DNA from: Candidatus Saccharimonadota bacterium
GTDB taxonomy: Bacteria; Patescibacteriota; Saccharimonadia; Saccharimonadales; Saccharimonadaceae
NCBI RefSeq assembly: GCF_025273655.1
Contig: NZ_CP045921.1
Coordinates: forward strand, 930,001-962,000
Direction: 5' to 3'
Length of the DNA: 32,000 nucleotides
The position numbers and the translations under genes are program-made. Below, one piece after another: positions 675 to 30,446 of the stretch. The notes beneath the pieces are model-generated. The model searched no databases. It was given only the letters and a program-made list of their open reading frames with translations, and had not been told where the DNA came from. Positions within the stretch are counted from its first letter, which is position 1. Each line of letters opens with the position of its first letter.

Positions 675-686
675 TAGCATAAGCGT
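675..686 (-). repeat. Copy 1 of the exact 12-mer ACGCTTATGCTA (inverted orientation)
   Basis: The plus strand reads TAGCATAAGCGT. It lies between the -10 at 666..671 and the ATG at 705. Confidence 0.8.
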
Positions 687-704
687 AAAAAACAGAAATA
701 TATA

Positions 705-2459
705 ATGAACAAAAAACTATCTTTTACACAATTATTTTCTCGCACTTCTCTCATCACCTACATCGTCTCCTTCGTATTTATTTCGTCAGTCATAGCAATC
801 GCACTAGGCAACCAAGCACATGCGGCTGCTGGGGCAGCGTGCAGTTACTCGGCAGACGGCAAGACATACTCTGGCACGACCGTCGAGACAGATGGTGTCA
901 GCTTTTGTAACGCCACAACATCCGTACTCAATGCCGCAATTGCCGCCACAGCTGCTGCGGGCGGCACCACGTCGACTGCATCAACTACCTGTAAACGCAA
1001 TGCCTCAACAGGCACAGATCTCAATTCTTACATAGATAACTGTGGTGGAAATCAAGAAATTCGTGTCACAAAAACCACAGCCAAACAAGACAAGGGCGCC
1101 AAACCACCCGCTATCATCTTTGTACACGGTGGCGGTTGGTTCAGTGATGACGGCAATTTCAATCCATCGTTTCAAAAACGAGCCGCCAAATGGGGCTTCA
1201 CTTCATTCCGCATTAAATATCGGCTGATGCCGGGCGGTGTCGATGAGCAGCTGCAAGATGTGCTACGCGCCGTCAAACACGTGCGCGACAATGCCGACAA
1301 GTATGGAATCGACAAAAACCGCATCGCTATCTGGGGCGACTCAGCCGGGGGCAGTCTAGCTGTACGCGCTGCCGCAACTGGTAGGTCTGGCGTCAAGGCG
1401 GCTATCGGCTGGTCTGCGCCAACCAATGCATTCCGCGACATCTTCAATTCGTACGATGGTTGGGTAGCCGGCCTATACCACTCGCGCTGCTTCGGCAGCG
1501 AAATCCCTGCCTCCGTTAACGACATCATCAATGCGTTTGTGTCGGGTGACCCGACAGCCCTGGCCCAGAAAGTCGCCTCCGGCCAAGTATTAACACCGGC
1601 AGAAAGTGCCAGACTCCTCAATCTTGCGCTCAATATCGCCCATGTTGGCCTGGTAGATCTACCTACCGCAGCCGGCAAACTCCAGACAGCGTCCAATTCG
1701 CTTGGCTACACTACCACAAGTACCACAGACACCTCGGCTCCTTCCCTCTCGAACGACCAGATCAAATCACAACTTTCAGAGCTTACACCAACCGAACTTG
1801 CCGCTATCGGTGTCGCACTCTATCAGTTCAGTCGCACCGCGCAGGGTATCCCCAACGATGACCCTACAACAACTGATACTGTGAGCATTATCACGTCATC
1901 TGCCAACTTGCTCACACAACTCCAGAAAGAGTCACAACAAGAGAAGGCTGCCAGTGGAACCCAGAGCACAACGAATTCGACCACTTCATCAACAGCCAAT
2001 GCTAGCGCAGTAGCAGCTATCTTCTCAGCCTCAAATATTACTGATGCTGCCAATCTCATCAATTCTGACAGCCTCATCGGGTCTACTAACTCGCTGATCA
2101 GCCTAGCAGACAATACCTCTACCGCACTTGGGGTCAATCCTCAGCAGATCCCTGCCAAAAAAATTGCCGAATGCATGGCAGATTTCATCGAACTATCGCC
2201 CGCCCTCTTCGCCAGCCCGCGCTCACCTCGTATGTATCTCTTGAGTGGCGCCCAGGAGCGATGGGTTAACCCCCTCGACTCTTATCAGATGCGCGACAAA
2301 CTCCGCAGCATGGGTATCAGTTCGCAGGCACTCGTGCTACCACAGACAACAAAGAAGATTACTCGATCAAATGCCGACGGCCACATGGGATACGATCAGC
2401 GCGCAGAAGTACCGTCGTTCCAATACTTACACGACCTACTTAAGTCAAAGATAGAGTAA
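705..2459 (+). CDS. Secreted alpha/beta-hydrolase (fold-3, hormone-sensitive-lipase-type carboxylesterase) with a long Ser/Thr-rich insertion
   Basis: 584 aa. N-terminal signal/TM segment (FVFISSVIAIALGNQAHA). HGGG oxyanion motif (IIFVHGGGWF), nucleophile elbow GDSAGG and a C-terminal DGHMGY candidate His. About 200 aa of S/T/N-rich low complexity lie between the nucleophile and the His. The mature N-terminus has four Cys. Confidence 0.75.
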   Translation: MNKKLSFTQLFSRTSLITYIVSFVFISSVIAIALGNQAHAAAGAACSYSADGKTYSGTTVETDGVSFCNATTSVLNAAIAATAAAGGTTSTASTTCKRNASTGTDLNSYIDNCGGNQEIRVTKTTAKQDKGAKPPAIIFVHGGGWFSDDGNFNPSFQKRAAKWGFTSFRIKYRLMPGGVDEQLQDVLRAVKHVRDNADKYGIDKNRIAIWGDSAGGSLAVRAAATGRSGVKAAIGWSAPTNAFRDIFNSYDGWVAGLYHSRCFGSEIPASVNDIINAFVSGDPTALAQKVASGQVLTPAESARLLNLALNIAHVGLVDLPTAAGKLQTASNSLGYTTTSTTDTSAPSLSNDQIKSQLSELTPTELAAIGVALYQFSRTAQGIPNDDPTTTDTVSIITSSANLLTQLQKESQQEKAASGTQSTTNSTTSSTANASAVAAIFSASNITDAANLINSDSLIGSTNSLISLADNTSTALGVNPQQIPAKKIAECMADFIELSPALFASPRSPRMYLLSGAQERWVNPLDSYQMRDKLRSMGISSQALVLPQTTKKITRSNADGHMGYDQRAEVPSFQYLHDLLKSKIE

Positions 2460-2473
2460 TAGCTATCAACTAC

Positions 2474-2511
2474 AACATAAAACAGCCGCGAAGTAGCGGC
2501 TGTTTTATGTT
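2474..2511. terminator. Bidirectional rho-independent terminator between convergent genes
   Basis: Perfect 16-bp inverted repeat AACATAAAACAGCCGC / GCGGCTGTTTTATGTT with a 6-nt loop. GC core flanked by an A-run and a T-run. Confidence 0.8.
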
Positions 2512-2529
2512 GTCCCTAAATCCCTATAA

Positions 2530-3012
2530 CTAGCGTCGTGTTACTCGCACCATAGCCGTACGAATTGGACTACCATCTAGGAGATATCCGGCTTGCAGCT
2601 CTTCGGCAATCACTTCATGCTCACCCTCGGCCTCTTCGTCAAACTGGATTGCCTCATGGAGCGTCGGGTCAAATGCGGTGCCGTCGCTCGCATCAATGCG
2701 CTCCACCCCCAATGTACCCAATGCACCCGCCAACGTCTTCGGTAGCTTCGCTACACCTTGCGCCCACGCATCGTCTACAAGGGTCTCTGGTAGGTGTCCT
2801 ACGCCTCGCTCAATTGTGTCGACGATAGGCAGCAGCTTCTTGATAGCATCCGCACGTCCAGCTTGACGCATGGCCGCCTTTTCCGCATCAACACGTTTAC
2901 GATAGTTTTCGAAATCAGCTCGAGTACGCTGTACGTCTGTCGTCAGCTCTTCCAGCTGCGCCTCAAGCGCCGCTACTACTTCATCATCAACTGGCTGGAT
3001 TTGCTCTGCCAT
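2530..3012 (-). CDS. grpE: Nucleotide exchange factor GrpE
   Basis: 160 aa. GrpE signature region RADFENYRKRVDAEK. AGGAGG Shine-Dalgarno (SD) site just upstream. Starts 15 nt after the hrcA stop. Confidence 0.9.
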   Translation of the reverse strand: MAEQIQPVDDEVVAALEAQLEELTTDVQRTRADFENYRKRVDAEKAAMRQAGRADAIKKLLPIVDTIERGVGHLPETLVDDAWAQGVAKLPKTLAGALGTLGVERIDASDGTAFDPTLHEAIQFDEEAEGEHEVIAEELQAGYLLDGSPIRTAMVRVTRR

Positions 3013-3027
3013 ATTTCCTCCTATAAA

Positions 3028-3738
3028 TTATAATGTCTCTTCGAGCATCTCGGCGGTCTGGCTGACTAATCGAATAACCCGAGCGTAGCTCTGACGTGTA
3101 GAGCCAAGGACACCGATGTAGCTTGCATCGCTGTATGGTGATCGAAATCGACTAATCACAAGACTTGCGCCACTTGCCTTGCCGATCGGGTTTTCTTCAC
3201 CGATATATACACTGAGCGGTTCGGTAGGAGCTGTCTCGCGCAGCCATGGCTCGAGATTATCCAGTAGACGCGCTACCGCTTGTGGCGCTGAACCACCATT
3301 CATAAATTCTGGCTGACTAAACAAATTACCGATACCACTCATGTACAGCTGTCCATCTATCGTCGCGATACCAAGATTATGTGTCAGTTCCACAAGACTA
3401 TCAACAGCACTACGAATAGCCTGATCAGCTCGATTACTGCTTGTAACGCGTGCTTCGATGGCTCTCGCACTGCGATCGAAGGCTGGGAGTTGTGGCACAT
3501 ACTGCTGCTCGGTGATCTGGTTTACATAGAACCGATAACCCTTGTCCGTCGGGATACGCCCTGCACTGGTATGTGGCTGAGTAATCAGACCAGCCTGCTC
3601 AAGACGAGCCATCTCGCTACGAATTGTCGCACTCGAGACGCCAAACAGTTTAGCAAGCGTAACACTACCAACAGGCGATGCGACTTCGGCGTATTGCTCC
3701 ACTATCGCGATAAGAATCTGCAATTGGCGATCGGTCAT
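3028..3738 (-). CDS. hrcA: Heat-inducible transcription repressor HrcA (short form, 236 aa)
   Basis: N-terminal winged-helix typical of HrcA (LTDRQ..IL..IV..Y....PVGS..L......SSATIR.EM..LE..GL...PHTSAGRIPT..GYR.YV). CIRCE operator immediately upstream. Confidence 0.9.
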   Translation of the reverse strand: MTDRQLQILIAIVEQYAEVASPVGSVTLAKLFGVSSATIRSEMARLEQAGLITQPHTSAGRIPTDKGYRFYVNQITEQQYVPQLPAFDRSARAIEARVTSSNRADQAIRSAVDSLVELTHNLGIATIDGQLYMSGIGNLFSQPEFMNGGSAPQAVARLLDNLEPWLRETAPTEPLSVYIGEENPIGKASGASLVISRFRSPYSDASYIGVLGSTRQSYARVIRLVSQTAEMLEETL

Positions 3739-3744
3739 ACTTAC

Positions 3745-3772
3745 ATTGTAGCACTTTTTGGCACTCAGGCAA
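3745..3772 (-). promoter_or_regulatory. hrcA promoter; leaderless geometry
   Basis: Minus strand reads TTGCCT (-35, inside the CIRCE spacer), 16 nt, TGC-TACAAT, then exactly 6 nt (gtaagt) to the ATG at 3738. Confidence 0.5.
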
Positions 3773-3784
3773 ATAGAGTGCTAG
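3758..3784. promoter_or_regulatory. CIRCE operator (HrcA binding site)
   Basis: TTGGCACTC-N9-GAGTGCTAG versus the consensus TTAGCACTC-N9-GAGTGCTAA (one mismatch per arm). An extra half-site TAGCACT lies at 3750..3756. Confidence 0.85.
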
Positions 3785-3787
3785 CAT

Positions 3788-3816
3788 TTGCATGATGTGC
3801 AGCTCAGTACTATACT
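3788..3816 (+). promoter_or_regulatory. Promoter for the 3825 gene
   Basis: -35 TTGCAT (3788..3793) abuts CIRCE. 17-nt spacer, -10 TATACT (3811..3816), then 8 nt to the ATG with no SD. Confidence 0.45.
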
Positions 3817-3824
3817 AGAGTTAT

Positions 3825-4049
3825 ATGAGTTTTTTGAGCGATTTAGGAAGCTTCCTTAGCGACGCACAGCAGTTTAATAACGAGCTGTCGGGAGTAAAAG
3901 ACGATCTGGTTAATCAGGCAATGACTGCAGCTTCACAAGTAAGTGATCAGATGGACGAAGTGTCCCAAGAGCTGAGCCAGACAAAAGACACTGCAGTCGA
4001 CACTTTGCAACAGACAAAAGACAGTTTCAGCTCAAGTCTCAACAACTAG
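3825..4049 (+). CDS. Small acidic Ser/Gln-rich coiled-coil-like hypothetical protein
   Basis: 74-aa ORF divergent from hrcA. Its promoter-like element is directly adjacent to CIRCE. No recognisable family motif. Confidence 0.5.
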   Translation: MSFLSDLGSFLSDAQQFNNELSGVKDDLVNQAMTAASQVSDQMDEVSQELSQTKDTAVDTLQQTKDSFSSSLNN

Positions 4050-4139
4050 GCTAGTTGTCTATGTCGCGGCTTGGCATCACGAGCCGAGCCACCATGACAG
4101 CCATAAATGCGATTGCAATGACAAGCAAGTAGTATTTCA

Positions 4140-4358
4140 TCAGCTTGTTTTCTTTTCGGCACCACCATAGGCGGCTGCGCCATATCCCTGCGGTACAGCC
4201 GAAACACGCTGATTAGTATCAGCCGGCCTAGGAGCAAACGTGCGCAAAACTGTTGTCACACCTGTCACTGCCACAAGTCCGATTGCTACATTCCTCAAGA
4301 AATCTTTGCGATCCATCTTCTGGCTCAAAATCGCGGCGAAATCTGTTTTTACTGACAT
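4140..4358 (-). CDS. Small protein with a Tat-like (RK variant) signal peptide
   Basis: 72 aa. MDRKDFLRNVAIGLVAVTGVTTVL resembles (S/T)RRxFLK plus an h-region. AAGGA SD upstream. Lies immediately downstream of tatC on the same strand. Confidence 0.5.
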   Translation of the reverse strand: MSVKTDFAAILSQKMDRKDFLRNVAIGLVAVTGVTTVLRTFAPRPADTNQRVSAVPQGYGAAAYGGAEKKTS

Positions 4359-4436
4359 AAAATTCCTTTTTTATTTTAGTGCTACTTATACACTTACTAT
4401 ACCACGAAAACGCATATGCCTATAGCCGTACGCCCA

Positions 4437-5579
4437 CTATACGAGGGATAGACCATCAATAGAGCGTGACGGACGACGCTGAGACTCCTGGGCAACTTGC
4501 CGCGCAGGAATCGTAGTTGGTCGTCGCGTAAATCCGTCGAGACTTCGTCTCATAGCAGTAGGGCGAGCGATGTCACCCGCACGTGTAACGGGCCGTGGTA
4601 ATGACAATGCTGCTTGCGTGCTCGATTGCAGTGCCGGCGCTTTTGCTGGTGCGTCAGCCTGAACAGCTGGAGGAGATACTTCTTGTATTTGCTCTTGCGC
4701 CCGCTCAGCTGCTTCGACCGGTAGAGTATGCTCAGGCTCCAGTAGTGCCACTGGGTCTTCTGCGGTCTCTTCGGGCTGCGTCACTGCGCGCGCTGCCCGT
4801 CTGCGCCCCGCAGTGCGACGCACGTAGACTGCAATAGCCCCTAACTGATAAATCAAGATGATAGGTAGCGCTACAATCATCTGATTCACGATATCTGGTG
4901 TCGGCGTAATGAGTGCCGCGGCAATGACAGCGCCTACGATGACGAAGCGTTGCGACGATAGTAGCGTGCCGGGAGGAAACGGCCGTACGTGATCAAACAT
5001 ATAGAGCAATAGTGGCAGCTGAAACAGCGCAGCGAGGCCTAACATATACGCCACTATGAAGCCGAGATATGACTCAGCCGTCAGGTTTGGCGTGACAGCA
5101 TCGCCAGCAAATGTTGTTAGGAACTGAATAGCCGCCGGTACTGCAATATAGTACCCAAATGCCGCCCCACTCAGTGCAAGCAATGCCGAAAGCAGTAAGA
5201 TCGCTGCGACAAGTCGGCGGGATGTTCGTCCAAGCACTGGCTGCAAGAAACGATAGATGTGATACACGACCACGGGTATTGTGACAAAAGCACCAAAATA
5301 CAAACACACGGTAAATATAAAGCTAAATCCACCCCCTGGAGTTAGGTAGACAAGCTTCTCCCCGTGCAGTGGAGCCATGACAAAGCTCACTAACGTGTCT
5401 TTATACTGGAAGCCGATTGCCGATGTCACAATCAACGAAGCAGTTATCCAAAACAACCGCGAACGGAGCTCGTATAGATGTTCGAGAAAGGTCTGCTGAT
5501 CCTCAGCAGAACTAGACTGACTTTTTAGCGTCGTCTGATTCTGTTTTGGTGTCTTTTTTCTTCGCCGTTGTGTCATCAT
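4437..5579 (-). CDS. tatC: Sec-independent translocase TatC with a ~125-aa Pro/Ala/Arg-rich C-terminal extension
   Basis: 380 aa. FLEHLYELRSRLF motif and a six-TM core in the first ~255 aa. AAGGGA SD 4 nt upstream of the ATGATG start, which lies inside tatA. Confidence 0.85.
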   Translation of the reverse strand: MMTQRRRKKTPKQNQTTLKSQSSSAEDQQTFLEHLYELRSRLFWITASLIVTSAIGFQYKDTLVSFVMAPLHGEKLVYLTPGGGFSFIFTVCLYFGAFVTIPVVVYHIYRFLQPVLGRTSRRLVAAILLLSALLALSGAAFGYYIAVPAAIQFLTTFAGDAVTPNLTAESYLGFIVAYMLGLAALFQLPLLLYMFDHVRPFPPGTLLSSQRFVIVGAVIAAALITPTPDIVNQMIVALPIILIYQLGAIAVYVRRTAGRRRAARAVTQPEETAEDPVALLEPEHTLPVEAAERAQEQIQEVSPPAVQADAPAKAPALQSSTQAALSLPRPVTRAGDIARPTAMRRSLDGFTRRPTTIPARQVAQESQRRPSRSIDGLSLV

Positions 5580-5709
5580 TCATTCCCTTACGAAGTTCTT
5601 TCATAGAGTCACCAACACTGCGGGCGAGTTCTGGCAGCTTGCGGCCTCCGAAAAGCAGCAGGATAACTAAGAAGATGATGATTAATTCTGGTGTACCGAG
5701 TCCGAACAT
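5512..5709 (-). CDS. tatA: Sec-independent translocase TatA/E
   Basis: 65 aa. MFGLGTPELIIIFLVILLLFGGRKLPELARSVG is a canonical TatA N-terminus. GAGGAAAA SD upstream. Confidence 0.9.
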   Translation of the reverse strand: MFGLGTPELIIIFLVILLLFGGRKLPELARSVGDSMKELRKGMNDDTTAKKKDTKTESDDAKKSV

Positions 5710-5801
5710 GTTTTCCTCACTTACTACTAAACTGCTTTTATAATATAGCGATTATGGTAAGATAGCAATAGATTCAGGGCTAAGAGGGTTGTAAAAAAGG
5801 T

Positions 5802-6059
5802 ATGGACACAAATCAAACAGGTAACTATAACTGTCAAAATGTCGACCAAAATGCATACGGTGCGGGCAATTATGGCACCTGTGCTGCTACCGCTGCTCAG
5901 TCTAGCACCACCCAACCTGGCACACCAGATACAGGCTCGTTTCTAGGATTCGTCACATCTGGCTCGTTTAGCATCATTTTGCCGCTCATCGTCGCAATTG
6001 TCGTAGTGCTCGCAGCGACTCTCGCCGTTACACGCGCAAAACACGCTAACCGCAAGTAG
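5802..6059 (+). CDS. Small Cys-containing protein with a C-terminal sorting-signal-like tail (TPDTG + TM + basic tail)
   Basis: 85 aa. C-terminus QPGTPDTGSF-[hydrophobic 25 aa]-RAKHANRK. In-frame TAA at 5781 blocks any N-terminal extension. No N-terminal signal peptide. Confidence 0.45.
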   Translation: MDTNQTGNYNCQNVDQNAYGAGNYGTCAATAAQSSTTQPGTPDTGSFLGFVTSGSFSIILPLIVAIVVVLAATLAVTRAKHANRK

Positions 6060-6065
6060 CGCAAC

Positions 6066-6095
6066 TTGTTCAAAAGACCAGCATTTTGCTATACT
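6066..6095 (+). promoter_or_regulatory. Promoter for the kinase gene
   Basis: -35 TTGTTC, 18 nt, extended -10 TGC-TATACT (6087..6095), then 10 nt to the ATG. TTTTGCTATACT is identical to the rdgB promoter. Confidence 0.45.
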
Positions 6096-6105
6096 ATCTA
6101 TAGTA

Positions 6106-6735
6106 ATGCAATCCTCTTTATCAGAAAACCAGCTCGCAACTGTCAAGCAGTGGCTCGGAAGCGGGAGTATCAACATCTTTGGCTTGCCCTTTGCCGGCAA
6201 AGATACACATGGACATCAACTAGCCCAGCTATTCGGTGGCGTGACGCTCAGTGGGGGCCAAATTCTCCGTGGTAGTCCACGCACACCAGAGCAGATTGCT
6301 ATCCAAGAATCTGGCGGACTATTTCCCACCGATGAATATATGCGTATTGTTACTCCTTACCTTTCGCGCAAAGAATTTGCCGGTCGGCCGCTTATCCTCA
6401 GCTCTGTTGGGCGCTGGATCGGCGAGGAACAAGGTGTACTTGCAGCCACGGAGGCGAGTGACCATCCGACAAAAGCCGTACTCTACCTGACGATCGATGA
6501 AGAAACGATCTATCGCCGGCTCGACGCCTCCAAAGAAATTGGCGACCGTGAACTGCGTGCCGATGACTCACATGAGGTTCTCGGCAATCGCATTCAAGAA
6601 TTTACCGGCAAAACCCTCCCAGTTATCGAAGAATACCGCAAACTTGGCCTCTTGATTGAGATCAATAGCGATGCCTCGCGCGAAGAAGTCTTCGACACGA
6701 TCCTAAGTCGCCTGTTACAGCGCGCCACTTCTTAA
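6106..6735 (+). CDS. Adenylate kinase-like nucleoside monophosphate kinase
   Basis: 209 aa. P-loop GLPFAGKDT (compare the Adk motif GxPGxGKGT), followed by LSGGQILR and RADD..E....R motifs. Short LID region. Confidence 0.6.
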   Translation: MQSSLSENQLATVKQWLGSGSINIFGLPFAGKDTHGHQLAQLFGGVTLSGGQILRGSPRTPEQIAIQESGGLFPTDEYMRIVTPYLSRKEFAGRPLILSSVGRWIGEEQGVLAATEASDHPTKAVLYLTIDEETIYRRLDASKEIGDRELRADDSHEVLGNRIQEFTGKTLPVIEEYRKLGLLIEINSDASREEVFDTILSRLLQRATS

Positions 6736-6758
6736 TTTTAATCTTTCAAAAGGTGCGG

Positions 6759-8537: not shown

Positions 8538-8551
8538 AATTATATGGTGTT

Positions 8552-8560
8552 ATTATAGCA
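8552..8560 (-). promoter_or_regulatory. Extended -10 for lepA
   Basis: Minus strand reads TGCTATAAT, 14 nt upstream of the ATG, inside the 40-nt murJ-lepA gap. Confidence 0.45.
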
Positions 8561-8577
8561 TTTTATAGGGGTAAATG

Positions 8578-10197: not shown

Positions 10198-10209
10198 TTT
10201 GATGTACCT

Positions 10210-18947: not shown

Positions 18948-18976
18948 CCTCCATGACAAATGCACTCATATGTGGT

Positions 18977-18988
18977 ACGCTTATGCTA
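18977..18988 (+). repeat. Copy 2 of the exact 12-mer ACGCTTATGCTA
   Basis: Exact match in the PAP2/YggT-like divergent region. Confidence 0.8.
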
Positions 18989-18991
18989 ACT

Positions 18992-19345: not shown

Positions 19346-19362
19346 TTCCACAGAAACCAAAC

Positions 19363-21344: not shown

Positions 21345-21370
21345 GTACTCCCCTTCTTCTAGTTACAACT

Positions 21371-21384
21371 ATCATAGCATAAGC
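21371..21384 (-). promoter_or_regulatory. Extended -10 for the GH172-like gene, including a 10-mer copy of the recurrent motif
   Basis: Minus strand reads GCTTATGCTATGAT. TGCTATGAT is identical to the element at 663..671. GCTTATGCTA forms a perfect inverted repeat with 21417..21426. Confidence 0.45.
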
Positions 21385-21414
21385 ATCTCTCCTATAGCTC
21401 AAATTGAAAATACT

Positions 21415-21426
21415 ACGCTTATGCTA
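21415..21426 (+). repeat. Copy 3 of the exact 12-mer ACGCTTATGCTA
   Basis: Exact match, 110 nt upstream of the ATG at 21537. Confidence 0.8.
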
Positions 21427-21536
21427 GACATCTACGCGCCATAGGTCTATGCTGAGGTCACCACTAGGTAGGGTGGGATTCCCAGCGGTATTCATAACCA
21501 ATTAATTCCCTATGCGAGGGAGAGGAATTAACCACT

Positions 21537-22277
21537 ATGGTTGAATCAAACGCCTACCAGGCACAACGCCAACAACTTTTACTTACAGGGGCAACAGTGT
21601 TTAGCGCAATCGTCGCCGCTGTGATCGTATCGACCATCGTCGTATCACAAATCATCCAGGGTCAGCTTGCAAGCGCCTTGTCTTCACAAGTTACTACGGG
21701 TGCGCCAACCACTACCGTCGCTGGTACATGTGTAGACACGAGCGCGCCAGCAGTAGCTGGTGAAGAAGCTGGTGCAAGCACTGTTGCCACAGTTGGTCAC
21801 TCTGCGGGCGCAGGATACTTGGTCAAGCCAATCAACGGTGCATGGGGAATCAAGGATTCATTCAACAGCAATACGACCGTGAACAACAGTACAACAACTA
21901 CCACAAACAACAACGAGACCCACACGACTCGTATCAATACTACTATCCGCGACAGCTTCAACAGCGGCTCTTACAACGATAACCGCGACCAAAGCGACAA
22001 TCGTGATCAGAGCGTTAGCGTTGATGGCAACACTCTCAATCTCAACTCTGGAAATACAAACCAGCAGAGCTGGACAAACAACCAGGCATGGAACACCACC
22101 AATAACACAACCACGAACACTACAACTAATACCGATAACAGCAACCATAGCGTCAACAACTCTGGTAACACCACCAGCCCAGTTACCAACACAACTACGA
22201 ACACTACAAATGTAGCAAATTCATACAATACAGCGAATCTACTCAGCGGTAATACTACAGCCGTAATCCTGCCATAA
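21537..22277 (+). CDS. Membrane-anchored Asn/Thr-rich low-complexity protein
   Basis: 246 aa. GAGGGAGAGG SD upstream. One N-terminal TM (LLLTGATVFSAIVAAVIVSTIVV). The C-terminal ~140 aa are mostly N/T/S, with a repeated DSFNS motif. Confidence 0.6.
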   Translation: MVESNAYQAQRQQLLLTGATVFSAIVAAVIVSTIVVSQIIQGQLASALSSQVTTGAPTTTVAGTCVDTSAPAVAGEEAGASTVATVGHSAGAGYLVKPINGAWGIKDSFNSNTTVNNSTTTTTNNNETHTTRINTTIRDSFNSGSYNDNRDQSDNRDQSVSVDGNTLNLNSGNTNQQSWTNNQAWNTTNNTTTNTTTNTDNSNHSVNNSGNTTSPVTNTTTNTTNVANSYNTANLLSGNTTAVILP

Positions 22278-22293
22278 CTCAGGACGCGGCACT

Positions 22294-22324
22294 AAATCAC
22301 CCGGTTGTTCAGGCCGGGTGATTT
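22294..22324 (+). terminator. Rho-independent terminator
   Basis: AAATCACCCGG-9 nt-CCGGGTGATTT perfect 11-bp stem, followed by TATTCTT. Confidence 0.75.
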
Positions 22325-22548
22325 TATTCTTCACAAGAGAATCGATGCCGCCTTCTATGAAAGCCGGGCAATAGGCCCGAGATCGAAAAGGTCTCTTTCC
22401 GCTCTTCCGCATGTACGCCAGGGGTATACATCGTATAAAAAGTGAAGATGGCCGTTGCAGCCACGCGATGACGGATGATCCGCTCTTGGGATACCTCCGG
22501 AAATGTTTCGCGCATCATATGCTCAAAAGTCTTATCACCTCTCTCCAT
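22324..22548 (-). CDS. Doubtful small ORF (74 aa), possibly a gene remnant
   Basis: It is the only ORF in a 327-nt gap. There is no convincing SD, and its 3' end runs into the terminator hairpin. Confidence 0.2.
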   Translation of the reverse strand: MERGDKTFEHMMRETFPEVSQERIIRHRVAATAIFTFYTMYTPGVHAEERKETFSISGLLPGFHRRRHRFSCEE

Positions 22549-22604
22549 AGAGATATCATACTCTCAACTTCCTACCATTCAAGCGTGACCTTCTTGAAGC
22601 AAAC

Positions 22605-24302: not shown

Positions 24303-24376
24303 ATTGTTCCTTTCTGTAGTAACTATGGTGCGCCAGCACAAAAAAGGGGATTTGTGCTGGCGCAAAAATGGTCTCG

Positions 24377-25009
24377 TTAGGAGTTAGGCATCAGTACAGC
24401 GTTGACCACGTGCGTCACGCCGTTGCTACTAATCACATCGGCAGTCTCAATACTCACTTTGTTACCTTTGGCATCTTGGATCTTAAGCTCGCCGCCGTCC
24501 ATGACAGGCGTCAGCATTTCACCCTCTACACTCGTGAGCATCTCCCCTTTCGCCGCCATCGCCTTCAGGTCGGCCGATGTATAGGTGCCAGATACGACAT
24601 GGTAGGTCAATATTTTGGCAAGCATATCTTTGTTCTCTGGCTTTTGGAGCGACTCAACTGTTGCCTTGTCAAGTTTGGCAAACGCGTCGTTATTCGGACC
24701 GAAGACCGTAAACGGACCCTCACCCTTGAGCGTGTCTACTAGATCTGCTTTTTTAACCAGGCTCACGAGTGTCGTGACGTTTTTTGCCTGCGCGGCATTG
24801 TCCACAATATCTTTGTCGCGCACCATCTTGGCTCCGCCTACGGTGACGCCGTCACCACCCTCAGAATTTGCGCTGCTCATCTGCGTAGTGGTGGAGTTCT
24901 TGTTCGAGTCCATCTTCATGCCACCAAGCATATAGCCACCGAACGCGCCGACCACAATACCAATTACTGCTGCAATCATTATTCCTACTACATTATTTCC
25001 CGAATCCAT
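24377..25009 (-). CDS. Membrane-anchored fasciclin (FAS1) domain protein
   Basis: 210 aa. N-terminal TM. FAS1 motifs GPFTVFGPNNDAFAKL, ILTYHVVSG and VTHVVNAVLMP. AGGAGG SD 7 nt upstream. Confidence 0.85.
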   Translation of the reverse strand: MDSGNNVVGIMIAAVIGIVVGAFGGYMLGGMKMDSNKNSTTTQMSSANSEGGDGVTVGGAKMVRDKDIVDNAAQAKNVTTLVSLVKKADLVDTLKGEGPFTVFGPNNDAFAKLDKATVESLQKPENKDMLAKILTYHVVSGTYTSADLKAMAAKGEMLTSVEGEMLTPVMDGGELKIQDAKGNKVSIETADVISSNGVTHVVNAVLMPNS

Positions 25010-25076
25010 ACCAGATCCTCCTGTATTAATTATTGCCCTATAGTCAAGTTATTTCGTAGACTTAATTAGTTTACTT

Positions 25077-25103
25077 AGTTAACTTAACTTGTTACTATAG
25101 TAA
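25077..25103. promoter_or_regulatory. Palindromes in the FAS1/marR divergent region (candidate MarR operator)
   Basis: 12-bp perfect palindrome TTACTATAGTAA (25092..25103), followed by a TATAGTA repeat. 8-bp palindrome AGTTAACT (25077..25084). Confidence 0.35.
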
Positions 25104-25141
25104 TATAGTACGAAAGGTATTGTCAACAACTCACGAATCAC

Positions 25142-25597
25142 ATGAACGAAGATATTTCTCAAATCACCACCTATGAAAGCGGCATCATGCAGTCAGCGGC
25201 TCACCGTATTCTCGGCCGCATCGAATCCGAATATCTCGCACAGTACAACCTCACTTCTATGCAGTGGTTTGCCGTCGGCATAGTGCGCGATGCAGGTGAA
25301 CGAGGCATCGGCTTGAGCGATCTCATGAGAACACTTGATACTACCATGCCCTATATCACTACACTCGTTGCCACACTCGAAGCAAAAGGCATCCTGCACA
25401 AAATCAGTGACACCAGCGACAGCCGCGTCAAACTTGCCGTCCTCAATCCCAAATATCGCAAAACCGTCGACAAAATCGAACTGGGCCTAAGGGATGAGCT
25501 CAGGCTCAAACTCTATCGCGAAGATCACATCACTCGCGAAGAGCTCTCTAGCTATATCGCGGTACTTTATAAAATTGTACAAGCAAGCAAACTGTAG
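25142..25597 (+). CDS. MarR-family transcriptional regulator
   Basis: 151 aa. Winged-helix pattern LTSMQWFAVGIV...GIGLSDLMRTLDTTMPYITTLVATLEAKGILHKISDTSDSRVKLAVL. Confidence 0.85.
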   Translation: MNEDISQITTYESGIMQSAAHRILGRIESEYLAQYNLTSMQWFAVGIVRDAGERGIGLSDLMRTLDTTMPYITTLVATLEAKGILHKISDTSDSRVKLAVLNPKYRKTVDKIELGLRDELRLKLYREDHITREELSSYIAVLYKIVQASKL

Positions 25598-25612
25598 TAC
25601 AGTTACAGTTTG
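25588..25612. terminator. Hairpin spanning both stop codons of convergent genes
   Basis: CAAACTGTA-gtacagt-TACAGTTTG, a 9-bp perfect stem. It contains the marR TAG (25595..25597) and the hydrolase TAA (25603..25605). Confidence 0.35.
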
Positions 25613-26181
25613 TTCACCCGGTGCACAATCAACGGCGCATAGATAGTCAACATAGCAAATATCGAGAATAGGTGACCTACAGCCGGCAGTGTCATCTTCT
25701 GGCAGCCGGGTAGTAACGTCTGGGCAACAGGAACCGTCGGGTCATACCACGGTACCACCGATACGAACCTTCGCCGATCAGCCCTAGACAATCCGATTGC
25801 GACGACCTCCGCCCTGTGCATCGAATCTTGAAACGCCGGGTTTCGCCTATAGAGGTACGATGACACGTTGTCAGAACGAGTGTTTTTGCCACACAATGTC
25901 ACGAGGCCCACCAGTGTGTTTACGTGCTCGGCATAAAGCGTCAGTGCCATGCTACCACCTGCGCTTTCGCCCATCAATACGATCTTTTCGTCTGAGCTCT
26001 TATGTATAATCTCTTCTACCCGGGCACGTTTATCACCGTACGCTTCGTCGCTCATCCATCGCATCGGCACCATGGTTACCCGTACGCCGTACATCCGCCA
26101 CACACTCAAGCAGGCTCGTCGAATAGGGTCGTACCGATCACCCAGTCCAGGAGTATAGATAATATGGACGCGTCGCTTCAT
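25603..26181 (-). CDS. Small alpha/beta hydrolase
   Basis: 192 aa. Nucleophile elbow GESAGGS and C-terminal GH. No signal peptide. Confidence 0.65.
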   Translation of the reverse strand: MKRRVHIIYTPGLGDRYDPIRRACLSVWRMYGVRVTMVPMRWMSDEAYGDKRARVEEIIHKSSDEKIVLMGESAGGSMALTLYAEHVNTLVGLVTLCGKNTRSDNVSSYLYRRNPAFQDSMHRAEVVAIGLSRADRRRFVSVVPWYDPTVPVAQTLLPGCQKMTLPAVGHLFSIFAMLTIYAPLIVHRVNKL

Positions 26182-26215
26182 ATCTCTTCAGACTAAACCC
26201 TACACCCCCTGCTAT

Positions 26216-26246
26216 GCGAGCCGCCGGCGTAGTACCGGCGGCTCGC
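26216..26246. terminator. GC-rich hairpin downstream of csbD (no U-tract)
   Basis: GCGAGCCGCCGG-7 nt-CCGGCGGCTCGC, a perfect 12-bp stem. Confidence 0.35.
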
Positions 26247-26265
26247 GAGCGCGGTGGAGATGAGA

Positions 26266-26484
26266 CTATTTTGGTTCGTCCTTGTCGTCTCCATTTAGTC
26301 TATCGCGTACGTTGTCGAGACCTTCGTTTACAGCATCACCGACTTTGTCTTTGGTCTCATCGGCTTTATCTTTGAGATCACCTGCAATCTGCTGTGCCTT
26401 GCCCTTGGCTTCCAGCTCTTGATCACCCGTCACCTTGCCAGTTACCTCCTTCGCCTTACCCGAGATGTCGTCTACCAGACTCAT
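26266..26484 (-). CDS. CsbD-family general stress protein
   Basis: 72 aa. GKAKEVTGKVTGDQELEAKGKAQQIAGDLKDKADE is a typical CsbD repeat. AAAGGAG SD upstream. Confidence 0.85.
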   Translation of the reverse strand: MSLVDDISGKAKEVTGKVTGDQELEAKGKAQQIAGDLKDKADETKDKVGDAVNEGLDNVRDRLNGDDKDEPK

Positions 26485-26519
26485 ATCTGCTCCTTTCGCT
26501 TAGTTGGTCATGTCTTTTT

Positions 26520-26528
26520 ATTATACCA
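26520..26528 (-). promoter_or_regulatory. Extended -10 for csbD
   Basis: Minus strand reads TGGTATAAT. A partial motif copy GCTTATGC lies 21 nt further upstream. Confidence 0.35.
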
Positions 26529-26553
26529 TCTGATAGCTATCAAAGTGCATAAG

Positions 26554-26760
26554 CTACTTGTGTTTCGTCTTTTTTGGCTTCTTTTCTTCGTCGAGGGCTA
26601 TACCTATAGCCACACCTACAGCCAAGCCAACTCCCATGCCAAGCCCTACATTATCAAACACAGTCAGACCAAGCACCGTACCCACCGCTAACCCAATACC
26701 TATTCCTATTGTGAGATACTGGTTTGAATCATCAGCCTTATTGCGTGATTTCTTTGCCAA
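26554..26760 (-). CDS. Small glycine-zipper membrane protein
   Basis: 68 aa. TTG start with a GAAAGGG SD inside the end of rdgB. GIGIGLAVGTVLGL...GLGMGVGLAVGVAIGIAL. Confidence 0.5.
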   Translation of the reverse strand: MAKKSRNKADDSNQYLTIGIGIGLAVGTVLGLTVFDNVGLGMGVGLAVGVAIGIALDEEKKPKKTKHK

Positions 26761-26765
26761 CTTAT

Positions 26766-27314
26766 TTACCCTTTCCCTTCCAGCTTATTTAGTAGCATCC
26801 GTATCGCCTGCGCGCGGTGGCTCAGCGAATTCTTCTTCTCCGCAGCCATCTCGGCAAAAGTCTCAGTCTCACTGTCCGGCACAAACGTGATATCAAAGCC
26901 AAAGCCCTCACGCGTCCGCGGCTCGACTACTTTGCCTGGCACATCTGCGCGCACCACTAGCATGTCTTTGCCGTCAAAGTAGGCGATGCTTGCCGATACG
27001 ATTGCGCGAGCTTCTTCGTTGCCTGCAAGTTTGTACAGCGCATCACCACCCAGTCGCTTGTTAAAAAACTTGATAAAAGGCCCTGGTAGGCCGTCTAGCT
27101 TTTCTAGCCCTGCAGACACATCTTCTACTACGACAGGCTTACCGACTACTTCGTATGCCCGGCGCGCTTTGTCCCTCACAATTTCTTCTGTATCGTCACT
27201 CTGAATTTCCGGTAAATCAACATCCGCGATATCCATGGCAATATCTGCAGGTATGATCTGCTGCCATTCTTTGAGCTTGTGCGGATTGCCAGTGACAAGG
27301 TAGAGGTGTTTCAT
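26766..27314 (-). CDS. rdgB: Non-canonical purine NTP pyrophosphatase (RdgB/HAM1 family)
   Basis: MKHLYLVTGNPHKLKE, FGFDITFVP and SHRAQA motifs. The ATG at 27314 lies 6 nt downstream of TGCTATACT. The ORF-track start at 27416 adds an implausible leader. Confidence 0.85.
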   Translation of the reverse strand: MKHLYLVTGNPHKLKEWQQIIPADIAMDIADVDLPEIQSDDTEEIVRDKARRAYEVVGKPVVVEDVSAGLEKLDGLPGPFIKFFNKRLGGDALYKLAGNEEARAIVSASIAYFDGKDMLVVRADVPGKVVEPRTREGFGFDITFVPDSETETFAEMAAEKKNSLSHRAQAIRMLLNKLEGKG

Positions 27315-27320
27315 AATTTC

Positions 27321-27329
27321 AGTATAGCA
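27321..27329 (-). promoter_or_regulatory. Extended -10 with leaderless geometry for rdgB
   Basis: Minus strand reads TGCTATACT-gaaatt-ATG (6-nt spacing). Confidence 0.45.
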
Positions 27330-27427
27330 AAACGTATAAAATCCCGTCCTCTCAGGAAAATACCAGGTATAAGGGATATATTGTAGTAGATAGTGGCTTG
27401 GTCCACAGTCGCCCAAAGGAGGTCAAT

Positions 27428-27973
27428 ATGCAACTAGGTGGAAAACATATCGCGCTAATCGCGACAGATGAATTCGAAGATAGCGAACTTACCCAGCCTC
27501 TCGATGCGCTTCGCGAGACGGGTGCAGAAGTTACTGTGGTATCTATCAAGCCAGATACGATCACTGGCAAGAACGGCACCGAAATACATGTTGATGCGCT
27601 CGTAGATGATGCAGATAGCAGTGAATATCACGGCCTAGTGATACCTGGTGGCGTGGGCAATCCAGATAAACTGCGCACCGACGAAGGCGCTGTGTCATTC
27701 GTACGAGATTTCTTCGAACAACATAAACCTGTCGGCGCTATTTGCCACGGCCCATGGCTACTCGTGGAGGCAGACGTGGTAGATGGCCGCACGGTCACCT
27801 CGTGGCCAAGCCTCAAGACAGACCTAGTCAATGCCGGCGCAAACTGGGTCGATGAAGAAGTCGTCGTAGACGAAGGCCTCGTGACAAGCCGTAATCCAGA
27901 TGATTTACCTGCGTTTTGCAGCAAGATTATAGAAGAATTCGCCGAAGGCAAGCACGAAGAGCAGACTGTATAG
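27428..27973 (+). CDS. DJ-1/PfpI-family protein (type 1 glutamine amidotransferase-like)
   Basis: AICHGPWLL nucleophile elbow. AAGGAGG SD 6 nt upstream of the ATG at 27428. Confidence 0.85.
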   Translation: MQLGGKHIALIATDEFEDSELTQPLDALRETGAEVTVVSIKPDTITGKNGTEIHVDALVDDADSSEYHGLVIPGGVGNPDKLRTDEGAVSFVRDFFEQHKPVGAICHGPWLLVEADVVDGRTVTSWPSLKTDLVNAGANWVDEEVVVDEGLVTSRNPDDLPAFCSKIIEEFAEGKHEEQTV

Positions 27974-27986
27974 TCTGCTCTAGCCG

Positions 27987-29357
27987 CTACGCATATGGAG
28001 TGACGTTACCAGAATTCTTGCGCAGGTACGCACGGAGTATTTTGTACGTATCGATATCAAATCCGTTCGACAGGCGCTCTAGCGTCGGCTCGAACTCATG
28101 ATGCATGATACCCTCTATCACCCACTGATCCACGATGAGTGATTTGAGCTCGCTGATCTTCACAGCGATTTTAGTCTTGAACGGCCACACTTCGATACGT
28201 GAACGACCGAGCGCGAACTCTGCCCGTTCATTGTACCCCGACGGCAGTTCTTCGCCGCCACATGCACCCTTACACAGCCCTAGTTGATAGCGGAAACAGT
28301 AGCTTTTTGCCTTCTCGAGCCCCATGAGCTTCGGACATAGCTGATACGTACGCGTCAGACTCTCGAGTGCCGCCTTTGCTTTTGCGCGGCTGGTGTAGAC
28401 GCCATAGACTTTGTCGAGGTCGGTCACATCAGATAAGTCGCGGTTTTCTATGGCGATGGTCAGGTAGCCATGATCGTCGTACTTCTTCAGCAATACAGAC
28501 TGAGTGGTTTTGCGGCGGAGCAGGCGATTGAATGTCGGCTGAAGTTCTTTTACCTTGGCAGATTCGAGCAGCAGCGCTTCTATCTCCGTATCCGTCTGCT
28601 CATACGACACATTGAAGCTACGCTGGGAGATCTTCATTTCTTTTGCCACCTTGGTATCATTTGCGAAGTGCGACATCACCCTGCTGCGGATATTGACACT
28701 TTTGCCGACGTACAGCGGCGTACCCTCTTCATCTTCAAATATGTAGATACCTGGAGCAGTAGGGAGGTGCGCGAACTTGGTCTCGTCGAGATTGGGCGGT
28801 AGCGTCTTGGTCTTCATCTGCAGGGCGACGTTTGCGAGGAACGCGTCACGGCCCTTCTCAGATATGGCTAATCTGGTGAATTCGTAAATCGCCCGCGCGT
28901 CGTCGTATGCCCTATGCCTATCCTCTACCACTATGCCGTGCCGATTGATAATCTTCTCGAGACTGTGGCCTTTGTGCTCTGGATACATGCCTCGTGACAT
29001 ACGGACCGTGCAAAAAAGCTTTGGCTTGTAATCATGGCCAAGTGCGGCAAAATGCGAGCGAAAAAACGAATAATCGAACCGTACGTTGTGCGCCACGAAT
29101 ATCGCTCCGTCGAGTATCTCCCGTAGCTCACTAGCAATATCTTCGAAGTAAGGAGCATGAGTGAGGTCGCTGTTCTTGATACCCGTCAGCCGTTCGATCC
29201 AGACAGGTACGCCAGTGCCGGGATTGACCAGGCTTTTGTACTCACGTACCACCTGACCCTCTTCGACCCGAATCAAGCCGACTTCAATAATCCGTCCCGA
29301 CGGGCCGTTTCCTCCATTTGTTTCTATGTCTACGAAGACTGTGGGTTCGGAGAACAT
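27987..29357 (-). CDS. DnaQ-type 3'-5' exonuclease fused to a GIY-YIG/UvrC-N-terminal (Cho-like) nuclease
   Basis: 456 aa. DEDDh motifs FVDIETNG, AHNVRFDYSF and HRAYDDA. GIY-YIG region PGIYIFEDEEGTPLYVGKSVNIRSR. UvrC-like Cys motif CFRYQLGLCKGAC. Confidence 0.85.
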   Translation of the reverse strand: MFSEPTVFVDIETNGGNGPSGRIIEVGLIRVEEGQVVREYKSLVNPGTGVPVWIERLTGIKNSDLTHAPYFEDIASELREILDGAIFVAHNVRFDYSFFRSHFAALGHDYKPKLFCTVRMSRGMYPEHKGHSLEKIINRHGIVVEDRHRAYDDARAIYEFTRLAISEKGRDAFLANVALQMKTKTLPPNLDETKFAHLPTAPGIYIFEDEEGTPLYVGKSVNIRSRVMSHFANDTKVAKEMKISQRSFNVSYEQTDTEIEALLLESAKVKELQPTFNRLLRRKTTQSVLLKKYDDHGYLTIAIENRDLSDVTDLDKVYGVYTSRAKAKAALESLTRTYQLCPKLMGLEKAKSYCFRYQLGLCKGACGGEELPSGYNERAEFALGRSRIEVWPFKTKIAVKISELKSLIVDQWVIEGIMHHEFEPTLERLSNGFDIDTYKILRAYLRKNSGNVTPYA

Positions 29358-29365
29358 GTATTATT

Positions 29366-29374
29366 ATTTTACCA
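29366..29374 (-). promoter_or_regulatory. Extended -10 for the exonuclease/Cho gene
   Basis: Minus strand reads TGGTAAAAT, 8 nt upstream of the ATG, with no SD. Confidence 0.35.
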
Positions 29375-29400
29375 AGAATTGCTGAGAGTCTCCTGGCAAG

Positions 29401-29431
29401 AAAAAACGACCACGCAAGGTGATCGGTTTTT
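29401..29431 (-). terminator. Rho-independent terminator after the tRNA
   Basis: Stem CGATCAC/GTGGTCG (one mismatch) flanked by A- and T-runs. On the minus strand it is followed by TTTTTT. Confidence 0.6.
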
Positions 29432-29433
29432 CT

Positions 29434-29510
29434 TGGTAGCACCGACAAGAATTGAACTTGTGACCTCAGGCTTATGAGTCCTGCGCTCTAACCAACTGAG
29501 CTACGGTGCC
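29434..29510 (-). tRNA. tRNA with anticodon CAU (elongator Met, or Ile2 if lysidine-modified)
   Basis: 77-nt cloverleaf on the minus strand: GGCACCG-TA-GCTC-AGTTGGTTA-GAGC-G-CAGGA-CTCATAA-GCCTG-AGGTC-ACAAG-TTCAATT-CTTGT-CGGTGCT-A-CCA. The CCA end is encoded. Confidence 0.9.
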
Positions 29511-29525
29511 GCAAATACAGACGTT

Positions 29526-29534
29526 ATTGTAACA
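29526..29534 (-). promoter_or_regulatory. Extended -10 for the tRNA
   Basis: Minus strand reads TGTTACAAT, 15 nt upstream of the mature 5' end. Confidence 0.35.
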
Positions 29535-29556
29535 GATATACTGTACTTTTTCTACC

Positions 29557-30105
29557 CTAGGCCCGTTGATACAGTTTCCAGAAAATCAGCGCTGCACCAG
29601 CTATGAGCGCCAATGTGCCGATAGCGACACCGAGGCCTTGCGTAATCCCGCCGAGGATCGTATCAGCGGGCAACCACCCCAGCTGGCCGAAGATGTAGTT
29701 CCAGTCATGCTGCACCGTCTCGCCCGGCCCTATGAGCGTTAGGGCTTGGGTACGGGCATCTGCCATATAGCGGCCTACACTTCGAAGTGCCAGCATGAGC
29801 CAAAGCGCTGCAAAGACCGCAGCGAAATACGATCTATACCGCAGACATGCCCACAGAAGCAGCACGGTAAACGCAATCTCGCCCACTGACCCCGCCATCG
29901 CTACCAGCAGACTCGGCAGAAACATCACGACTAGATGCGACGCCTCGTGCACACCAAACTGTACAAAATACATACCGCCCACCAATATGTTGGTATTTGT
30001 TGCTACGTCGAACTGGAGTATCTGCCACCACAAGTACGCAAACAAAACCCACCCGACAACGTACAGCCAGGTGGGCAAGGGGAGAAGGCTACTCGCGGAT
30101 TTCAT
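29557..30105 (-). CDS. Polytopic membrane protein with an HExxH motif (putative intramembrane metalloprotease-like)
   Basis: 182 aa and about 5 TM segments. FGVHEASHLVV lies at a membrane boundary. No other family motif recognised. Confidence 0.5.
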   Translation of the reverse strand: MKSASSLLPLPTWLYVVGWVLFAYLWWQILQFDVATNTNILVGGMYFVQFGVHEASHLVVMFLPSLLVAMAGSVGEIAFTVLLLWACLRYRSYFAAVFAALWLMLALRSVGRYMADARTQALTLIGPGETVQHDWNYIFGQLGWLPADTILGGITQGLGVAIGTLALIAGAALIFWKLYQRA

Positions 30106-30127
30106 AGCCTCTACTGTAGCATAAGTG

Positions 30128-30319
30128 TTATGCGGCTAGGTCGAGATCGCTCTGAGCAAGTTCGTCGAAGCCCTCGCCTAGCGTCACGTCTTGCATAGCA
30201 CTGCTACCGAGTTTTGCCGTCACGAAGTCTAGCCGACGACGAGTTTCTACCCTATCAATATCTACTGTTTCCTGCGCCGGGGTATCAATAGCAATACCTC
30301 GCTGTTCGAATTCGAGCAT
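30128..30319 (-). CDS. Small acidic hypothetical protein
   Basis: 63 aa. AAAGGAAC SD and a good promoter upstream. Its stop is 22 nt before the HExxH gene. Confidence 0.45.
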   Translation of the reverse strand: MLEFEQRGIAIDTPAQETVDIDRVETRRRLDFVTAKLGSSAMQDVTLGEGFDELAQSDLDLAA

Positions 30320-30361
30320 GTAGCGTTGTTCCTTTTGTTTGTGTTATGTTCTAATATGCTT

Positions 30362-30390
30362 ATATTAGCATAAACATCATAAAATTGCAA
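30362..30390 (-). promoter_or_regulatory. Promoter for the small acidic / HExxH gene pair
   Basis: Minus strand reads TTGCAA, 17 nt, TGC-TAATAT. Preceded by GTTTATGCTA, a 9/10 match to the recurrent motif. Overlaps the palindrome CTAATAT-gctt-ATATTAG (30351..30368). Confidence 0.45.
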
Positions 30391-30408
30391 TACCTTTCGA
30401 CCACATTT

Positions 30409-30446
30409 TTGACTACTGTTGCACGCTTATGCTATAAATAAGCGTG
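30409..30446 (+). promoter_or_regulatory. Promoter for the 6-TM / ATP-cone operon, with copy 4 of the 12-mer and an inverted repeat
   Basis: -35 TTGACT (30409..30414), 18 nt, TGC-TATAAA (30431..30438). ACGCTTATGCTA at 30423..30434. Inverted repeat CACGCTTAT-gctataa-ATAAGCGTG at 30422..30446. Confidence 0.45.

Follow-up and report, generated by a model that had tools for sequence, protein, structure and literature searches.

Why would an exact 12-nt word recur four times, always between genes, in one short stretch of a Candidatus Saccharimonadota genome? The stretch analysed here, hereafter the window, comprises 32,000 nt (C1:930001-962000) of a genome that consists of a single contig of 1.08 Mb with a G+C content of 50%, and the word is ACGCTTATGCTA. 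A preliminary description of the window proposed that these copies are a shared operator, or a specialised promoter, defining an envelope/surface regulon. Our results suggest another answer, namely that the word is probably the top-scoring form of the housekeeping promoter core, served by a single sigma-A, and not a separate regulatory site.

Occurrence of the word in the window and in the genome

The four exact copies (Table 1) lie where they had been reported and are well above expectation, because 100 dinucleotide-preserving shuffles of the window contained 0.02 copies on average and never as many as four. The weaker copies starting at 21375 and 30366, both on the minus strand, and the inverted ATAAGCGT at 30438-30445 are also present as claimed, and we found an additional 11/12 copy at 30117. 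As had been noted, every copy falls outside credible coding sequences; the TTG-start open reading frame (ORF) 30419-31198 has its true start at ATG 30470, as judged by conservation. Allowing up to two mismatches, the window contains seven sites for 3.2 expected, which is no excess over chance. The whole genome contains six exact copies, so that four of them are concentrated in the window. The flanks of these four have nothing in common beyond the 12-mer and show no sign of duplication, and we thus discarded a duplicated cassette or a mobile promoter as the source of the copies.

The word occupies the register of an extended -10 promoter

Alignment of 219 intergenic TGnTAnnnT sites from the genome produced a standard sigma-70 architecture, with TTG at -35, T-17, R-16, the TG dinucleotide, a strongly preferred C-13 and a TAtAAT hexamer. 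The right-hand part of the word, TTATGCTA, fits this consensus: 65% of its sites are intergenic, as are 86% of the CTTATGCTA sites, in a genome of which only about 10% is intergenic. Most of the 55 genomic TTATGCTA sites look like textbook promoters (e.g., ATTGACTTTT-N-TTATGCTAATAT), often with a start codon 9-16 nt downstream, and 37 of them are followed by nnnT, which completes a TAnnnT hexamer; in related genomes this hexamer is mostly TATAAT. Judging from these alignments, TTATGCTA is a Gram-positive-type TRTGn extended -10 plus the initial TA of the hexamer recognized by sigma-A. This supports the earlier proposals that TGCTA is part of the general extended -10 and that the copies sit on core-promoter elements. 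As TG is at -15/-14 in this register, the 12-mer spans positions -22 to -11; TTATGC would then correspond to the '-16 region' TRTG plus one base, TA to the start of the -10 hexamer, and ACGC to spacer positions -22 to -19.

The same register is found well beyond the window. We counted 40 occurrences of the exact 12-mer in 40 other genomes of the order, and only four of the reversed 12-mer, used as a control, an approximately 10-fold difference. Two of these 40 copies are inside a conserved coding sequence and around 36 read as a -35 box, a spacer of 17-18 bp and ACGCTTATGC-TAnAAT. The ATG is most often located exactly 10 nt past the word, with its A 7 nt past the hexamer, from which a leaderless mRNA is predicted. 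Likewise, 18 of the 20 sites with up to one mismatch in the query genome show the same arrangement of hexamer and leaderless ATG. Except for the copy at 675, the word is co-oriented with the downstream gene, at a distance fitting a transcription start site (TSS) 6-8 nt past the hexamer. Transcription would thus usually fire 6-7 nt past the hexamer, straight onto the ATG. A fixed register with both the hexamer and the leaderless ATG is the behaviour of a promoter core, and not that of an operator.

A separate class of promoters dependent on an alternative sigma factor can be rejected, because the 99.9%-complete genome contains a single match to the Sigma70_r2 profile (PF04542), at C1:111330-111536, and one holoenzyme should therefore read all promoters.

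Apart from the 12-mer, the genome contains a second family of near-identical promoter words, with an AT-rich spacer (tATTGACTTTTAAtcatacTTATGCTAATATG) and similarity over more than 30 nt, which is found 5' of unrelated genes outside the window (C1:52453, 257961, 356087 and 127862).

Enrichment of GC at positions -20 and -19

The left part of the word, ACGC, is not part of the genome-wide consensus deduced from the 219 sites, and it is the commonest 4-mer preceding TTATGCTA in the genome (6 of 55 sites; the next 4-mer occurs twice). In an order-wide sample of 118 sites with the pattern W-N5-TTATGCTATAAT, G-20 and C-19 each appear in 42% of the sites, and GC occupies exactly these two positions in 30 sites, compared with 1, 6 and 3 sites at neighbouring offsets. 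CGC is the top 3-mer in this sample (12 sites, ca. 3-fold over independence) and ACGC the top 4-mer (6 sites). The frequency of GC is likewise raised 5' of other extended -10 variants, TTRTG[AGT]TATAAT, with 21 of 150 sites across the order. The dinucleotide does not appear to compensate for a missing -35 box, since TTATGCTA sites from the query genome do not differ in -35 score whether or not they carry GC (Mann-Whitney p = 0.49). We also discarded that ACGCTTAT is an independent half-site: once the 12-mers are excluded it shows no intergenic enrichment (48 copies, six of them intergenic).

That these bases are important is best indicated by the promoters of pilM, which we recovered from 19 different families of the order (loci L078-L105). 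C-19 is present in all 19 promoters, T-18 in 18, G-20 in 17, Y-21 in 16 and A-22 in 12, and positions -23 to -30 vary freely. The core GCTTATG(n)TAtAAT is thus maintained across at least 19 families, with the ATG 6-11 nt past the hexamer. The pilM promoter of the query genome (C1:168100-168154) has a form that is 1 nt shorter, CGCTTATG-TATAAT. The near invariance of G-20 and C-19 in the pilM promoters of 19 families is, in our opinion, a modestly new point.

It could be argued that the left half lacks any function, ACGC having been inherited or having drifted beside a strong -10, and that the window has four copies by coincidence. Around five sites with up to one mismatch are indeed expected by chance in 1.08 Mb (from 4^12), the copy upstream of yggT is exact through a single substitution from the form of its genus (see below), and the cluster was chosen post hoc among the results of a very large scan. 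This explanation is, nevertheless, improbable given the confinement of GC to one offset, its conservation in pilM promoters next to spacer bases that are free to change, and the excess of the 12-mer over its reversed control among the relatives. Because of this positional enrichment and of the conservation in pilM promoters, we consider G-20/C-19 a putative functional, position-specific determinant within the spacer of promoters of this order, with weaker contributions from Y-21 and A-22, of which the 12-mer would be the fullest form. The claim that the 5' half marks only a subset of promoters thus holds, inasmuch as its occurrence is non-random, position-specific and conserved. GC would be read by RNA polymerase itself and not by an accessory factor. 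More tentatively, G-20/C-19, or the full ACGC at -22 to -19, might be a previously undescribed basal element of the Saccharimonadales that determines how strong a number of leaderless promoters are, in particular those of pilM in at least 19 families, and that is read by the single sigma-A holoenzyme or by an adjacent small global factor.

The four copies in the window differ in context

The four copies are heterogeneous: one is canonical, one is in a shifted register, one abuts a conserved promoter, and one is inverted and geneless (Table 1).

Table 1. Location of the copies of the word, and of associated predicted features, in the window
Positions	Strand	Feature	Remarks
644..671	+	Putative esterase promoter	TTGCAA (644-649), 16 bp, TGC-TATGAT (663-671)
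675..686	-	Exact 12-mer, inverted with respect to the esterase gene	At about +1 of the putative esterase promoter; oriented towards the 3' end of ORF 3-632
18953..18981	+	Putative yggT promoter	-35 ATGACA (18953-18958), 17-bp spacer, TGG-TACGCT (18973-18981)
18977..18988	+	Exact 12-mer, shifted register	ACGCT, last five bases of the putative yggT hexamer TACGCT; TATGCTA, predicted discriminator and TSS
21375..21386	-	11/12 copy ATGCTTATGCTA	Followed by TGAT, giving hexamer TATGAT; putative promoter of the DUF2961 gene, with a Shine-Dalgarno leader
21415..21426	+	Exact 12-mer 5' of the gene for a 246-aa membrane protein	Possible weak promoter (TGC-TAGACA) or flank of P2
21425..21453	+	Conserved candidate promoter P2	TAGACA, 17 bp, TATGCT; predicted TSS near 21460
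30117..30128	-	11/12 copy ACACTTATGCTA	Followed by CAGT, giving hexamer TACAGT; ATG 11 nt later; putative leaderless-type promoter of a 182-aa gene
30366..30377	-	10/12 copy ATGTTTATGCTA	Followed by ATAT, giving hexamer TAATAT; TTGCAA -35 at 17 bp; putative promoter of a 63-aa gene
30423..30434	+	Exact 12-mer, putative promoter of the 6-TM/ATP-cone operon	ACGC, -22..-19; TTATGC, TRTGn extended -10; TA, start of hexamer
30444..30473	+	Candidate leaderless mini-ORF	GTG AGG ... TGA, 9 codons; stop overlaps main ATG 30470 (ATGA)

The copy at 30423, preceding an operon for a protein with six transmembrane segments (6-TM) and an ATP-cone protein, reads as a canonical promoter, with TTGACT (30409-30414), an 18-bp spacer and TGC-TATAAA (30430-30438). 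The word is exact in two members of the same genus, G003 and G001, and reads GTGCTTGTGCTA in a third, G002, which keeps TRTGCTA and not ACGC; the -35 box is invariant. Only here, among all copies, does the word form part of a dyad, ACGCTTAT-N7-ATAAGCGT (30423-30445). A palindromic operator can be rejected, because the right arm is lost in G003 (ctagtcat), G001 (atatacat) and G002 (ctaagcat) and the promoter is kept. The preliminary description had also stressed that copies face each other as inverted repeats; the arrangement exists, and it corresponds simply to divergent promoters placed back to back. The mini-ORF at 30444 starts 9 nt past the 12-mer, at the predicted TSS, and has counterparts of 6-10 codons starting with ATG AGG in G003, G001 and G002; three of the four genomes have its end overlapping the main ATG. 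It might serve as a leaderless upstream ORF that delivers ribosomes to a main gene lacking a Shine-Dalgarno sequence. A tRNA gene at 29437-29510 (minus strand) was the only match to Rfam in the window at the gathering threshold.

Comparison of the yggT region among five genus members reveals (A/C)TGACA, a 17-bp spacer free to vary, TGn-TACGCT, W-ATGCTA, two or three nucleotides and ATG 18992, the only start codon common to the five genomes. Conservation of the -35 box, the TGn motif and the hexamer, together with the free spacer, indicates that ACGCT is here probably part of the -10 hexamer. The other four members read ACGCTAATGCTA (11/12), so that the exact match is one substitution away from the form of the genus.

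Upstream of the gene for the 246-aa membrane protein, the last TA of the word at 21415 opens the -35 box of the candidate promoter P2. In G003 the equivalent sequence is AAGCTTATGCTC, in which the A-11 is lost, and the hexamer after TGC is destroyed. P2 is kept in both genomes: G003 reads TCGACT, 17 bp and TATGAT, followed by a near-identical leader, CACCACTAGGTAGGGTGGGATTCCCAGCGGTA, whose first base is the predicted start. The copy at 21415 would thus flank or overlap the -35 box of a conserved promoter, and it may be a weak second promoter as well. The leader (21459-21536, plus strand) is nearly identical to that of G003, with conserved blocks CACCACTAGGTAGGGTGGGATTCCCAGCGGTA and TTAATTCCCTATGCGAGGGAGAGGAATTAACCA, in contrast to an identity of only about 50% in the adjacent intergenic DNA. 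TTAATTCCCTATGCGAGGGAGAGGAATTAACCA can fold into an 8-bp hairpin that surrounds the Shine-Dalgarno sequence of the gene. A structured RNA or riboswitch was discarded for this leader, since no Rfam family matched it at E <= 1 and its fold z-score was 0.14.

No gene follows the copy at 675 in its orientation; its minus-strand hexamer is TACTCA, it lacks a -35 box, and it has no counterpart in G003. The neighbouring gene was identified as an esterase by matches to BD-FAE/Abhydrolase_3. At 663-681, two extended -10 sequences stand face to face, TGCTATGAT on the plus strand and TGCTACTCAT on the minus strand, with their hexamers overlapping by 1 nt at 671. These may form a divergent or antisense promoter pair, and the copy at 675 is possibly a cryptic or antisense promoter.

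By a different explanation, the word would be a stack of tandem -10-like hexamers, (T)ACGCT, TATGCT and TAnnnN, offering two or three registers 5-6 bp apart; copies would differ in the register used and some would drive divergent or antisense transcription. The yggT promoter clearly uses TGn-TACGCT, P2 uses a TATGCT hexamer, the YGCT at -21 to -18 repeats the TGCT at -15 to -12, and the esterase -10 directly faces the adjoining inverted copy at 675. However, T precedes ACGC in only about one-third of the copies from relatives, so that TACGCT is usually absent, the 6-TM promoter of G002 keeps TGTGCTA and not TATGCT, which favours the TRTG reading, and the distance to the ATG fits the downstream hexamer. 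We regard stacked promoters as an improbable account of the word.

Conservation of the word upstream of orthologues is only partial: it is exact solely at the 6-TM operon, 11/12 and in a different functional register at yggT, 10/12 at the 246-aa gene, and absent at the esterase gene. For the 6-TM and 246-aa genes, more distant orthologues were uninformative on the promoter, being either too divergent or internal to operons.

Operator or promoter core

The proposal of an operator implies that a dedicated repressor or activator binds (A)CGCTTATGCTA over core promoters and controls a regulon of envelope and type IV pilus genes. Genes downstream of exact copies include those for PilM, several pilins, a CHAP hydrolase, a DUF3048 protein and membrane proteins, but also for L-lactate dehydrogenase, ribosomal protein L19, an FAD-linked oxidase and a NUDIX-RNase H fusion; in the query genome, a ComM-like ATPase and FtsE are also downstream of the word. 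The downstream genes, therefore, do not form a coherent set. Twelve of the approximately 38 intergenic copies from relatives precede pilM or pilin-like genes, which agrees with an operator, whereas only one of the 17 pilin-like genes of the query genome has the word. We discarded a type IV pilus regulon for this reason, and because the excess in relatives largely derives from orthologous promoters of pilM and of the major pilin.

Of the two exact copies located elsewhere in the genome, one (C1:189950-190089, minus strand) is predicted to drive a leaderless ORF of 38 codons (MANTKVTKQTHKP...). At the same spot, G002 also contains a leaderless ATG (MAQVNEIK...), and the next long ORF there appears NrdR-like by eye, because of the cysteines of an N-terminal zinc ribbon.

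Several observations weigh against our interpretation of the word as a promoter core. First, the four copies occupy different positions and orientations with respect to the best-supported promoters, overlapping -22 to -11, -11 to +1, the -35 flank and, inverted, +1, as would be shown by an operator overlapping core promoters. Second, in the query genome GC is tied specifically to TTATGCTA, which it precedes in 27% of the sites, compared with 4-10% for other extended -10 forms, and this linkage and the order-wide excess of CGC over independence suggest that the word acts as a unit. Third, the hexamers after TGC in the four window copies, TACTCA (675), TAACTA (18977), TAGACA (21415) and TATAAA (30423), all end in A and lack T-7. 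Fourth, when six ACGC labels were shuffled among the 55 TTATGCTA sites, of which seven are in the window, at least four fell within 32 kb in 0.26% of the trials (p 0.0026), or in 3% (p 0.03) with the yggT copy set aside, and four of the six genomic copies do lie within 30 kb. Lastly, an N-terminal hydrophobic segment was found in 22 of 43 downstream ORFs scanned (51%), compared with a genome baseline of 32%, a figure that includes orthologous repeats and is uncorrected for promoter-proximal bias. The near invariance of GC in pilM promoters across families and the retention of GCTTATGCT in G003, 5' of the 246-aa gene and despite the destroyed hexamer that follows, can also be counted in favour of an operator.

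The principal argument for an operator is the heterogeneity of the copies. It would be equally expected from a favourite promoter word shared by chance among one canonical promoter, one look-alike in a different register and two marginal sites of RNA polymerase binding. In the register of the word, a -35-like hexamer at 16-18 bp is present at 30423 (TTGACT, 18 bp) and at most copies from relatives, and it is missing or poor at 675, 18977 and 21415; extended -10 promoters can lack a -35. The p value of the cluster should be read with the window having been singled out for its clustering among the very many that were scanned, and we attribute the co-occurrence of four exact copies to a window rich in TTATGCTA promoters plus chance.

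On the other hand, an operator is at odds with the register that the word keeps relative to the -10 and the leaderless ATG, fixed in 18 of 20 sites of the query genome and in most of those from relatives, and with the lack of any conserved dyad or partner in direct repeat. Unlike that for a discrete site, the preference is graded (GC > CGC > ACGC), and it extends to other extended -10 variants. Neither is the word present at the promoter of the MarR gene at 25142, the only nearby regulator so checked. In all, we consider it unlikely that an operator underlies the word, though somewhat less so than a functionless left half or stacked promoters, and the proposed envelope/surface regulon is not supported, given the single sigma-70 gene, the fixed register, the unconserved dyad and the diversity of downstream genes. 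For that proposal, the outcome of our analysis is deflationary.

The interpretation of the word as the best form of a sigma-A promoter core has some practical consequences. A full-text literature search retrieved no account of the motif or of promoter architecture in Saccharibacteria or other bacteria of the Candidate Phyla Radiation (CPR), and this architecture appears to be essentially undescribed. If reliable, a model consisting of a -35 box, (A)CGC, TTATGC, TATAAT and a leaderless ATG would improve the calling of gene starts in these genomes, and would provide the few Saccharibacteria amenable to genetics with strong native promoters for immediate use. It would also flag a conserved control point of type IV pilus genes, on which these episymbionts depend.

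Comparison with known systems

One close parallel is the Gram-positive TRTG '-16 region', or TGn extended -10, of sigma-A promoters. Both have T-17, R-16, T-15, G-14 and n-13 directly 5' of TAnnnT, a -35 box that is often weak or dispensable, and one primary sigma factor. Unlike it, the block found here extends upstream to G-20 and C-19 (and to Y-21 and A-22), and C-13 is strongly preferred.

Further upstream, residue R451 of sigma70 is said to contact DNA near -18, and the zipper of the beta' subunit reportedly recognizes a 'Z-element'. These share with the Saccharimonadales promoters a position-specific preference in the spacer, just 5' of the extended -10, which in the latter would likewise be independent of a transcription factor. 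They differ in that the preference here is for GC at -20/-19, in the Saccharimonadales lineage, and the resemblance is only functional.

The leaderless promoters of Actinobacteria and Deinococcus are also comparable; in the TSS map of M. tuberculosis, for example, an ATG or GTG is both the TSS and the start codon (PMC3898074). As in those, the hexamer lies around 6-7 nt before the start codon and there is no Shine-Dalgarno sequence. However, the promoters described here have a long extended -10 with TRTGC and a GC element, and their TSSs are predicted.

Finally, the binding of HrcA to CIRCE (TTAGCACTC-N9-GAGTGCTAA) offers the model of a true operator, and hrcA is encoded in the window. In both cases a short word appears in several 5' regions over core promoters. 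A genuine CIRCE-like dyad, TTAGCACTTGAGTG-TCTAGAGTGCTAG, was seen only in the divergent region ca. 110-140 nt upstream of orthologues of the 246-aa gene from two other genera (L074 and L075), and was found neither at this gene in the query genome nor in G003. In contrast to HrcA/CIRCE, the word ACGCTTATGCTA has no dyad or conserved partner arm, is in constant register relative to the -10, and precedes diverse genes.

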